Shown here piece by piece: positions 36,713 through 38,514 of a stretch of 64,000 nt of DNA. The position numbers were made by a program, and so were the translations under genes. The stretch lies in the IMG/VR virus record IMGVR_UViG_3300031853_000023, positions 7,254 to 71,253 of that record; one strand, 5' to 3'. This DNA is from a virus. Below the pieces are notes generated by a model. It was not told the DNA's origin and made no database searches. It worked only from the letters and a program-made list of their open reading frames with translations. The stretch's first letter is position 1. The number at the start of each line of letters is the position of its first letter.

Positions 36713-36925
36713 ATGAATAAATTATGGTCAAAAGATTGGTGGAAAGCCGCAGGAACAAGAGCAATTAAAACATTTGCACAAACTTTTGTTGGCTCTGTCG
36801 CAGTAGGAATGGCGATAAGTGATATTAACTGGCTTACAGTTGCCTCTGTTGCAGCCGTAGCATCAGTATTAAGCCTTATGACCTCTATTGCGGGACTCCC
36901 TGAAGTAAAGGAGGAAAATAAATAA
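36713..36925 (+). CDS. Holin (phage_holin_4_1-like)
   Basis: 70 aa with two TM segments. The motif AGTRAIKTFAQTFVG is typical of this holin family. Immediately precedes the endolysin. Confidence 0.6.
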   Translation: MNKLWSKDWWKAAGTRAIKTFAQTFVGSVAVGMAISDINWLTVASVAAVASVLSLMTSIAGLPEVKEENK

Positions 36926-38514
36926 TGGCATTAAAAGGTATTGATGTTTCATATTCTCAAGGAAGTATAAATTGGGCAAAAGTAAAATCTCAAATAGACT
37001 TTGCAATTCTTAGAAGTACATTTGGCTCAGATTTACCAAGTCAAACTGATAGTCAATTTCATCAAAATGCCAATGGATGTGTAAAAAATAATATTCCATT
37101 TGGAATTTATCATTTTGGTTATTTTGTAGATGAATAGACTGCAAAAGGATAGGCTGATTTTGCTATTAGAATAGCAAATGAATATAAGCAATATGTAAAA
37201 TTTATTGCATTGGATTTAGAAGAAGATTCTGAAAGATATGCAAAAAGAGTTGGTAAAATTCCTAATTGGGGAAAATGTGCAATTATTTTCTTGTAGAGAA
37301 TTAAAGCCGCAGGTTATACTCCTGTAATTTATACAAATGTTGATTGGATGTAGAATAAATTAGGCGGATATAATAATATGAAAGCCTATAAAGTATGGTT
37401 TGCAGGCCCAGATGCAAAAGCTCCAAGATATGATGCTTCAATTTGGCAATATAATTGGACAGGAAAAATTAGTGGTATAACTGGGGATGTTGATTTAGAT
37501 TATTTATATGATGGTAATTTATTAAAATCAAAAACAACCACTTCATCTACAAAAGTAAGCGATAAGGATACATTTTTAAATCAAGCCCGCACTTATATTG
37601 GAAAAAATGGTAAATATGTATGTAAAACCAAACTTGGACTTGGCGCAGTGTATGATTGGTGTGCATTTTCAGTTTCCGCAATTATGAAAGATTGTGGCTT
37701 TATTGGAAAATATCAAGGCGGAATTTATAGTTTTGCCTCTGATAATGCCAGAAATGATAATGGTAAATATGGAGAATGGTTCCTTAAAGGAAAGAAGACT
37801 CCTGTCCCTGGCGATTTAATTATGTTTAAATATGCTTCATTTACTAATCCTATTGATAAATATTCTGCAAGTCATATAGGAATTGTAGAAAAAGTAAATG
37901 GAAATGAAATTACTACATTAGAAGGAAATGTAGATGGATATGGAAATAATTGGGCGGCGACATCAAGCTTTAAAAGAAAGACAAGATATTTAAACAGTTC
38001 AGATGTATATTCTTTCTTTAGACCTTGGTGGGATGGTAAAAAGACCTCAACTACTACATCCACTACAAAATCAACGAGTTCTTCTACTTCACAAACAAAA
38101 ATTTCTGCTCCAGATATTTATTATCAAGTTTATGCAGGTGGTAGATGGCTCCCCGAAGTTAAGAACTTAGAAGATTATGCTGGTCTTGAAAATAAGACAA
38201 TTCAAGGCATCTATATGAGAACCACAAAAGGTCATATTAAATATAGAGTAAAAACAACAACATCGCAAAATTATTTACCTTGGGTTTATGATAGAAATGA
38301 TTATGCTGGAATACTTGGTAAAGATATTGCTTGGGTACAAGCCACTCTTGAAGGGGTAAATGGATATGAAGTTGAATATAGAGTATCTACAACTGCATCA
38401 ACTAATTATCTACCTTGGGTAAAGAGCTATAACACAATTAATGATGATGGATATGCAGGAGGCAAATCTAATCAACCTATTGATAAATTACAAATAAAAA
38501 TTGTAAAAAAATAA
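36925..38514 (+). CDS. Endolysin: GH25 muramidase, CHAP/NlpC-P60-like cysteine peptidase, and C-terminal cell-wall-binding repeats; 4 in-frame TAG
   Basis: GIDVSYSQGSINWAKVK..DFAILR..GIYHFGYF resembles GH25 and Cpl-1. Track ORFs 36925 and 37378 share one frame and are joined by TAG at 37135, 37150, 37294 and 37351. Repeats YRVKTTTSQNYLPWV and YRVSTTASTNYLPWV. Confidence 0.6.

Follow-up and report, generated by a model that had tools for sequence, protein, structure and literature searches.

A lysis cassette interrupted by TAG codons in the early region of a metagenomic phage, and the probable reading of TAG as glutamate

The DNA analysed here, called the window, is a 64,000-nucleotide stretch of the IMG/VR virus record IMGVR_UViG_3300031853_000023 (positions 7,254 to 71,253 of that record). 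Positions 36713-38514 of the window contain a lysis cassette composed of a holin gene and an endolysin gene, and the reading frame of the endolysin is interrupted by four TAG codons. The locus raises the question of how such an enzyme can be produced, which amino acid is placed at TAG, and whether the TAG codons determine the time of lysis. Comparisons of related sequences indicate that TAG is probably read mainly as Glu in this phage clade, which would represent a phage genetic code beyond table 15. The explanation of the whole locus that we favour, and regard as probable, combines a predicted functional cassette, the gating of late genes in general by TAG, and the decoding of TAG as Glu by a tRNA(CUA) encoded in a tRNA array. 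The assignment of the amino acid matters more than the cassette itself. The cassette contains the following features:

36713-36925, + strand: holin, 70 residues; Pfam PF16945 (Phage_r1t_holin), E 5e-17, 62 bits against a cut-off of 26.9
36925-38514, + strand: endolysin, 529 codons; open only if TAG is read through
37135, 37150, 37294, and 37351, + strand: in-frame TAGs at endolysin codons 71, 76, 124, and 143, located by translation
~36940-37479, + strand: GH25 muramidase domain of the endolysin; Pfam Glyco_hydro_25, residues 6-185, E 1.5e-24
37219-37221, + strand: GAA codon 99 for the GH25 catalytic Glu of the D-x-E motif, located by alignment to cellosyl
~37651-37929, + strand: CHAP peptidase domain of the endolysin; PF05257, residues 243-335, E 1.7e-8, 35.3 bits against a cut-off of 26
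~38110-38511, + strand: Ser/Thr-rich linker and C-terminal repeats of the endolysin, delimited by self-alignment

The holin belongs to the lactococcal r1t family and also matches the holin family PHROG 443 (E 2e-19). Its open reading frame (ORF), positioned directly upstream of the lysin, encodes two hydrophobic stretches recognized by eye, and its TAA stop codon overlaps the ATG of the endolysin in the sequence ATAATG. The match of the endolysin to Glyco_hydro_25 covers the complete model (1-180 of 180) and runs through all four TAGs. The original prediction had counted the four in-frame TAGs correctly, but had placed only the first three within the GH25 domain. Residues D97 and E99 align with D98 and E100 of cellosyl, the N-terminal catalytic Asp is conserved, and the domain matches 1JFX (E 7e-14). 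The motifs DWCAF and SHIGIV of the CHAP domain are kept among homologs, and its catalytic Cys and His were assigned by eye. The C-terminus contains two clear repeats of ~50 residues (self-alignment score of 76, compared to 23 +/- 5 for shuffled sequences) and a degenerate third copy. With the sole exception, at a relaxed threshold, of DUF7753 (E 0.15), the repeats match no Pfam family even at E 10, and ChW, SH3, Cpl-7, and choline-binding repeats are absent. The same C-terminus occurs in the PHROG endolysin families 3393 and 22474, and the repeats may bind the cell wall, as their position suggests. The architecture predicted earlier, GH25 followed by a CHAP/NlpC-P60-like peptidase and two wall-binding repeats of ~45 residues, was recovered by the Pfam models and self-alignment, except that the repeats match no known wall-binding family. 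The search for homologs of the endolysin identified 1148 proteins, many of them full length. The enzyme shares less than 40% identity with the GH25 lysins that GenBank contains from Clostridium, Bacillus, and Butyrivibrio phages.

The TAG codons of the endolysin are part of a recoding that extends across the window. The G+C content of the window is 29.5%, and the tail-gene blocks contain long ORFs only if TAG is a sense codon. None of the 47 gene-sized ORFs ends in TAG, since all end in TAA or TGA; 26 of them are free of TAG, and the remaining 21 contain 192 in-frame TAGs. TAG-rich genes include those for large tail-type proteins (683-11503 and 17899-20760) and homing endonucleases inserted in early genes. 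The TAG-free genes encode an MVP-like protein, RNA ligase, kinase, phosphoesterase, RNase H, gyrase/topoisomerase subunits, NAD-dependent DNA ligase, DnaB, and primase. They function mostly in replication and repair, and many of them are positioned behind near-consensus extended -10 sigma70 promoters.

Which amino acid is specified by TAG can be approached from the endolysin itself. Among 120 homologs, the columns that correspond to the TAGs contain Gln 58 times and Lys 21 times (column 71), Glu 92 times and Gln 10 times (column 76), Glu 91 times and Gln twice (column 124), and Lys 42, Thr 14, Glu 13, and Gln 4 times (column 143); some of the Gln residues in these counts are TAG codons translated by the database with code 15. 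The column frequencies favour Glu over Gln approximately 140 to 1. In standard-code homologs whose DNA was inspected, the four columns hold Gln or Lys, Glu, Glu, and Lys or Thr, and the related lineages L165 and L246/L247 have GAA at all four TAG positions of the window. L165, L246, and L247, which are three independent assemblies, have TAG at codon 99, that is, at the catalytic Glu of GH25. Replacement of the GH25 proton donor Glu by Gln should inactivate the domain, as in E-to-Q mutants. The ratio of nonsynonymous to synonymous substitution rates (dN/dS) of the GH25 domain is 0.16 between the L165/L246-type lineage and the window and 0.13 for a pair without the codon-99 TAG, which shows that the domain is maintained by selection. 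In the endolysin of L002, a TAG is found where the CHAP motif HVGIVE has its near-invariant Glu (L002 codon 330, equivalent to window codon 322). Two TAGs had been predicted to align with Gln residues of Cpl-1. In a BLASTP alignment to Cpl-1, this was true of TAG124, which is opposite the Gln of FMQMI, whereas TAG76 is opposite Glu and TAG71 opposite Ala; the alignment ended before codon 143.

Codon comparisons among relatives extend this result to other genes. Sites at which TAG is paired with a sense codon were counted only where identity over the ten flanking residues reached at least 50-60%, and the tape-measure gene was the main source of such sites. The comparison of the window with L001, L002, and L028 provided 65 sites in real genes, and the partners of TAG were Glu 31 times (28 GAA and 3 GAG), Lys 9, Gln 8, Asp 7, and Asn 3 times. 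The weak hint towards Gln in the original prediction was thus not borne out. With empirical partner profiles derived from these alignments, the 65 sites have a log-likelihood of -140 if TAG is Glu and of -225 if it is Gln. The replication block contains 34 unique sites with TAG in the relative, at which the residue of the window is Glu in 15, Asp in 4, Gln in 3, and Lys in 3 cases. In the independent close pair L077 and L107 (18 real-gene sites), TAG is paired 16 times with Glu and once with Gln, and the comparison of L077 with L079 gave 24 Glu and 4 Gln. Codon 74 of the Sak4-like gene, TAG in the window, corresponds to Glu in 14 of 15 relatives, and codon 165 of RecJ, also TAG, corresponds to Glu in nine relatives, Asp in three, Pro in two, and Gln in one. 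In an alignment of 23 RecJ sequences, TAG is present in the invariant or near-invariant Glu columns 294, 324, and 353, and in no invariant Gln column. The partners of TAG, with Glu first, followed by Asp, Lys, and Gln, and with Arg absent, resemble the substitution profile of Glu. A codon-usage test of the loss of CAG compared to GAG in TAG-rich genes favoured neither residue, because both CAG and AAG decrease with the G+C content.

A candidate decoder of TAG is encoded outside the window. No tRNA gene was identified by ARAGORN in 127 loci around the endolysin, RecJ, and NrdD genes (1.69 Mb, in which the positive control worked), nor by walking rightward past NrdD. A tRNA array precedes a DUF2828/vWA gene ~2 kb to the left of window position 1 in L128, L129, L166, and L167. 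It was reached via the genes for a 1030-residue tail protein and the DUF2828 protein, and L166 and L167 were recovered by a protein-based scan. The stretches of the array, all positioned to the left of the window start, are:

L128, 1-700: tRNA array stretch
L129, 5990-7335: tRNA array stretch
L166, 2200-4810: tRNA array stretch
L130, 660-9905: tRNA array stretch

The arrays of sister genomes contain up to 24 tRNAs, and tRNA(CUA) is present in 11 loci. These loci include parts of the genomes in which the exchange of TAG and GAA was observed (L130 is from the genome of L077, L158 from that of L107, and L136 from that of L079). The portions of the array from the lineage of the window encode Gln(UUG), Glu(UUC), and other tRNAs, and an exact-match search of JGI metagenomes for this array gave nothing. 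The suppressor tRNAs have C1-G72 or G1-C72 and A73 or C73, and the tRNA-Gln of the clade has U1-A72 or A1-U72 and G73. By eye, the suppressors appeared similar to tRNA-Glu, and the D-loop and variable loop of the L132 suppressor are identical to those of tRNA-Glu(UUC). The similarity was not upheld by a nearest-neighbour test with masked anticodons, in which only the L132 suppressor was nearest to Glu/Lys; among control tRNAs, the test correctly identified 15 of 17 for Glu and 13 of 17 for Gln. It is possible that the glutamyl-tRNA synthetase (GluRS) of hosts lacking glutaminyl-tRNA synthetase (GlnRS) charges a tRNA(CUA) that does not resemble tRNA-Gln, and that the product is not subsequently amidated. 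The arrays have additional peculiarities. AT-rich phages of the clade encode tRNA-Glu(CUC) besides tRNA-Glu(UUC), L139 also carries tRNA(UUA), and L166 carries tRNA-His(AUG). L129 contains two G+C-richer non-coding stretches (5440-5990 and 6596-6793), each located between promoters and tRNA genes, which lack Rfam matches at E <= 1 and may represent structured RNAs of an unknown kind.

Three other readings of TAG have to be weighed against its decoding as Glu. If the TAGs were genuine stops, the locus would contain a GH25 pseudogene in decay and, behind it, a CHAP lysin with a start of its own (code-11 ORF 37378-38514). Such a protein could start from the ATG at endolysin codon 151, and standard-code callers predict CHAP-only proteins of 376-381 residues (P0007, P0014, P0022, and others). 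The segments between the TAGs, however, lack start codons: there is no in-frame ATG after TAG71, TAG76, or TAG124 before codon 142, and the pieces of the endolysin therefore cannot be separate genes. The end-to-end alignment of the GH25 model over the TAGs, the low dN/dS of the domain, the variation of TAG positions among lineages whose frames stay open, and the 192 in-frame TAGs in 21 genes, none of which ends in TAG, make genuine stops extremely improbable. Separate GH25 and CHAP genes, named in the original prediction as the refuting case, are contradicted by the lack of an internal ATG and by the full-length standard-code homologs. The reading of TAG as Gln, as in code 15, assumes that the alignments to Glu originated from GAG-to-TAG mutations at sites tolerant of Gln. 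It agrees with the CAA or CAG partners at endolysin codons 38, 89, and 143, at several tape-measure sites, and at sites in the LAGLIDADG endonuclease, and with the Gln opposite TAG124 in Cpl-1. It is reported to have been validated experimentally in crAss-like phages (PMC9523058). A similar analysis of Lak phages aligned TAG with Gln in 75-85% of cases and explained occasional Glu by GAG-to-TAG mutations at tolerant sites (PMC8346664). In the clade studied here, however, the ratio of Glu to Gln partners is ~4:1 relative to the window and reaches 16:1 in close pairs, and a profile in which Asp is common and Arg is absent is that of Glu, not Gln. Furthermore, the partners are mostly GAA, which is two steps from TAG, whereas neutral replacement of Glu by Gln would produce CAA, and 449 CAA codons remain unconverted in TAG-containing genes. 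The occurrence of TAG in invariant-Glu columns and at a GH25 catalytic Glu under purifying selection is equally difficult to reconcile with Gln, and we consider this reading unlikely.

Alternatively, TAG might be decoded ambiguously, providing a mixture of Glu and Gln at positions where both are tolerated. Many Firmicutes lack GlnRS and produce Gln-tRNA via GluRS and GatCAB, and one route to a mixture would be a Glx-type suppressor charged with Glu by a non-discriminating GluRS and partly amidated by GatCAB. The partners of TAG are mixed (Glu 48%, Lys 14%, Gln 12%, Asp 11%) and less self-consistent than those of any ordinary residue, and exchanges of TAG with both CAG and GAA are found between near-identical genomes. 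Because partners with Gln codons occur and Glu accounts for only about half of all partners, ambiguous decoding retains a small probability. A mixture of residues at the catalytic Glu and in the invariant-Glu columns would nevertheless render a large fraction of the proteins inactive, and the suppressor tRNAs lack the U1-A72 and G73 of the tRNA-Gln of the clade. Several observations weigh against the explanation based on Glu. The 48% share of Glu among TAG partners is far below the ~82% at which ordinary residues match themselves, and the TAGs of the LAGLIDADG endonuclease are paired with Gln three times and with Glu twice. Endolysin codon 38 is TAG in one and CAG in the other of the 99%-identical L165 and L246, and codons 89 and 143 pair TAG with CAA. 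The CHAP domain could keep an enzyme with inactive GH25 useful, so that a TAG in place of the catalytic Glu does not fully prove the reading. The 64-kb window itself contains no tRNA according to ARAGORN and Rfam, and no tRNA(CUA) is present in the partial arrays from the lineage of the window (L128, L166, and L167; 5 kb from L166/L167) or in L129. With masked anticodons, the suppressors have their nearest neighbours in several groups of tRNAs (Cys, Trp, Lys, Met, and Asp). Finally, we infer the timing of transcription, read-through of the terminator, and translational coupling from the sequence. Despite these points, the decoding of TAG mainly as Glu remains the probable reading.

Papers and annotation pipelines assume that TAG encodes Gln, and gene callers and databases implement this assumption (Prodigal code 15). 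Our literature search found no report of TAG encoding Glu in phages. Because the public protein collection translates with code 15, TAG-derived residues are listed as Gln in its entries P0001, P0002, P0208, P0212, and P0213, and the GH25 catalytic motif reads 'LDLQED' in P0002, P0208, P0212, and P0213. Code-11 calls of TAG-containing endolysin genes appear as fragments of 88 and ~380 residues. If TAG encodes Glu, the predicted proteins of the whole clade are systematically mistranslated, and in catalogues produced with code 15, hundreds of Glu residues per genome, some of them catalytic, are listed as Gln. Phage stop-codon reassignment would then have arisen with more than one meaning for a single codon, and aminoacylation by the host (GlnRS or GluRS/GatCAB) would be a testable determinant of the code that a phage can adopt. 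Engineered use of lysins from the clade would require GAG, not CAG, at TAG sites.

Whether TAG gates lysis depends in part on the position of the cassette in the genome. The surroundings of the cassette are:

21146-30574, - strand: tape-measure gene, 3142 codons with 69 in-frame TAGs; the nearest structural gene, with orthologs matching Pfam PhageMin_Tail
33904-35133, + strand: RNA ligase, TAG-free (Pfam/PHROG)
35200-35229 and 35226-35254, + strand: terminator followed by a sigma70-like promoter (promoter/terminator scan)
35290-35586, + strand: Zn-finger protein, TAG-free (Pfam/PHROG)
35583-36071, + strand: P-loop polynucleotide-kinase-like protein, TAG-free (Pfam/PHROG)
36092-36634, + strand: metallophosphoesterase, TAG-free (Pfam/PHROG)
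36654-36686, + strand: terminator-like hairpin with U-run (terminator scan; -15.6 kcal/mol, z -4.3)
38527-38554, + strand: intrinsic-terminator-like hairpin directly 3' of the endolysin stop (-21.7 kcal/mol, z -6.5), kept in L001 and L002
38580-39371, + strand: accessory ORF of 263 residues, Asn/Tyr-rich, with three TAGs and its own ribosome-binding site and terminator
39650-39687, + strand: terminator preceding the RNase H promoter
39692-39720, + strand: perfect sigma70-type promoter TTGACA-17-TATAAT with TG, driving the TAG-free RNase H gene
39751-40296, + strand: RNase H, TAG-free (Pfam E 7.6e-25)

The cassette is a small, terminator-bracketed unit inside a TAG-free early and replication region. 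The original prediction had placed it between RNA-repair genes and RNase H on the early strand, far from the structural genes. The placement is correct, except that the 263-residue ORF intervenes before RNase H, and the cassette is separated from the structural block, although the tape-measure gene on the opposite strand starts only ~6.1 kb away. The 263-residue ORF has no Pfam or PHROG match and is absent in L001/L004, L165, and L246, while L002 has a different ORF of 140 residues at this position. Compared with close relatives, the ORF is an indel, and it probably has no role in lysis. The hairpin 36654-36686 ends 13 nucleotides before the Shine-Dalgarno sequence AGGAGG of the holin (36700-36705), and its stem is conserved and its loop variable in L001, L002, L165, and L246. 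There is no space for a promoter between this hairpin and the holin.

Two further observations concern the early region. The early-type promoters (15500-15551, 33500-33547, 35226-35254, 39692-39720, and 48190-48351) share the extended -10 element TTTTTG(T/A)TATAATATATA. Such promoters also precede the TAG-containing genes of a RuvC-like protein (15552-16040) and an 89-residue protein (20777-21046), and TAG content and promoter type therefore do not correspond one to one. Positions 30758-33253 (+ strand) encode a TAG-free protein of 831 residues with a Major Vault Protein shoulder domain (MVP_shoulder, E 2.7e-20). This MVP-like protein is conserved in L001, L002, and L246, and its only matches among GenBank phages are in three huge-phage records of 462-735 kb (LR756500, LR756501, and LR756503).

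Translation in the standard code yields only the first 70 residues of the endolysin and does not reach the catalytic D97-x-E99, and the full-length enzyme therefore requires TAG decoding, as originally predicted. The same prediction held that recoding delays lysis. The truncation supports this idea in part, but the TAG-free holin, the average share of TAG in the endolysin, and the hairpin upstream of the cassette weaken it. The holin, although it is the usual lysis clock, contains no TAG in the window, L001, L002, L165, or L246, which are all the lineages examined; since it is short and has only three Glu codons, the absence of TAG is not significant in itself. In the canonical holin-endolysin model, a cytoplasmic endolysin is harmless without holin. 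No signal or signal-arrest-release sequence was seen in the endolysin by eye, and its early synthesis alone would therefore not lyse the cell. TAG accounts for four of the 19 Glu-type sites of the endolysin (21%), equal to the mean of TAG-containing genes, 192/(192+732) or 21%. The conserved hairpin before the holin suggests that the cassette is gated transcriptionally as well.

The four TAGs might have been selected at the 5' end of the endolysin gene as a dedicated timer that blocks lysis until late in infection. All of them lie at or before codon 143 of 529 (p = 0.005 if all codons are considered and 0.03 if only Glu-type sites are), and every lineage examined has two to four endolysin TAGs, all in GH25 except for one TAG in the CHAP domain of L002. 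Recoding has been proposed to coordinate late genes and to suppress premature lytic functions, and preferential recoding of lysis genes has published precedent (Borges et al., bioRxiv 10.1101/2021.08.26.457843). The compared set, however, comprises six sequences from four or five lineages, the share of TAG is that of an average late gene, and the TAG-free holin and the harmlessness of a cytoplasmic endolysin in the absence of holin also count against a timer. A dedicated timer is possible but rather doubtful. Instead, TAG gating looks like a general property of late genes combined with transcriptional insulation of the cassette.

Based on these features, a sequence of events leading to lysis can be proposed. 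RNA polymerase would read through the AU-rich hairpin and U-run before the holin or start at a weak promoter overlapping them; one of the two is probably needed. The TAG-free holin would be translated by the unmodified host machinery. Translation of the endolysin in the host code would end at codon 71, as follows directly from the sequence, and the full-length enzyme composed of GH25, CHAP, and repeats would presumably be produced only after the phage-supplied TAG decoder became active. The decoder would be the tRNA(CUA) of the large tRNA array just to the left of the window. The endolysin, with no export signal recognizable by eye, would reach the cell wall through the holin lesions.

The gene order around the cassette is kept in five related lineages (L001/L004, L002, L165, and L246/L247) and comprises the tape measure (- strand), MVP-like protein, RNA ligase, kinase, phosphoesterase, holin, endolysin, RNase H, and gyrB. 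Nucleotide identity is ~92% for L001/L004 and ~76% for L002, and ~80% in the endolysin gene for L165 and L246/L247. Endolysins of the same architecture are encoded by standard-code temperate phages, with identities over the whole protein of 61-62% for P0019 and P0030 and 59% for P0039. The endolysin genes of the standard-code phages L023, L025, and L027, which carry integrase or recombinase genes, are positioned after tail-fibre genes, and the embedded position of the cassette is therefore a feature of the recoded clade.

The contigs of the clade originate from gut and rumen-type metagenomes, and the related IMG/VR contigs are 117-146 kb long. A nucleotide search of GenBank phages found no relatives of the window, and neither did a search of IMG/VR with a tail protein. 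Phages of the phAss-1 type (PMC10607447) were considered as relatives, but no phAss-1 record was among the GenBank phage matches listed. The RecJ-like exonuclease shares 32% identity with the YorK protein of SPbeta-like Bacillus phages, which suggests that the clade is distantly SPbeta-like. The window belongs to a TAG-recoded siphophage that probably infects Firmicutes, a host assigned because of the similarities of the lysin and the RecJ-like protein to those of Firmicutes phages.

Several early genes are interrupted by TAG-rich homing-endonuclease ORFs (regions 40332-43460, 48707-51230, 54447-57181, and 62201-63998). A GIY-YIG ORF interrupts gyrB; the gene is also split in L246, but L001 and L247 have an uninterrupted gyrB. 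An HNH/PD-(D/E)XK ORF at 49979-50671 with five TAGs divides a ThyX-like gene (48707-51230 region), and a GIY-YIG ORF at 48707-49597 carries 12 TAGs. The DnaB gene is split by a LAGLIDADG ORF at 55822-56643 with seven TAGs (54447-57181 region). No group I intron was found in the window by Rfam at the gathering score. The TAG-rich homing ORFs mirror the recoded intron endonuclease published for Agate phages (bioRxiv 10.1101/2021.08.26.457843). A different anomaly is present at 16444-17880 (- strand), where a TAG-free ORF of 478 residues with 46% G+C is surrounded by a TAG-rich tail-gene block of 24-29% G+C; it seems to have been acquired recently and might be a receptor-binding module.

The cassette itself is an ordinary case of the recoded late and lysis genes published for gut phages. 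As in those phages, TAG is present in structural and lysis genes, early and replication genes use the standard code, homing endonucleases in early genes are recoded, tRNA(CUA) is found in relatives, and late or lytic timing has been proposed as the function of recoding. The published phages differ in that their TAG aligns best with Gln, whereas here it aligns with Glu, and the lysis cassette of the window is set apart from the structural block, among early genes. In Jade phages, a code-change module (tRNA, aminoacyl-tRNA synthetase, or release factor) adjoins the lysis cassette; here, the cassette is preceded by the RNA ligase, kinase, and phosphoesterase genes, and there is no tRNA within 10 kb of it in the window, L001, L002, or L004. 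The enzyme resembles the GH25 muramidases Cpl-1 and cellosyl (1JFX, 4KRU, 4JZ5, 3HMC) in its full GH25 domain, catalytic Asp and D-x-E motif, and modular, presumably wall-binding C-terminus, but it adds a CHAP domain after GH25, and its repeats match no Pfam family. Its closest architectural counterparts, the endolysins of standard-code temperate phages, contain no TAG and are encoded after tail-fibre genes instead of among early genes. A precedent for the reassignment of a UAR-type stop codon to Glu is the nuclear code of peritrich ciliates (NCBI table 30), in which TAA and TAG specify Glu. There, both codons are reassigned throughout the genome of a eukaryotic nucleus, whereas here only TAG is reassigned, in a subset of the genes of a phage whose host presumably uses the standard code.

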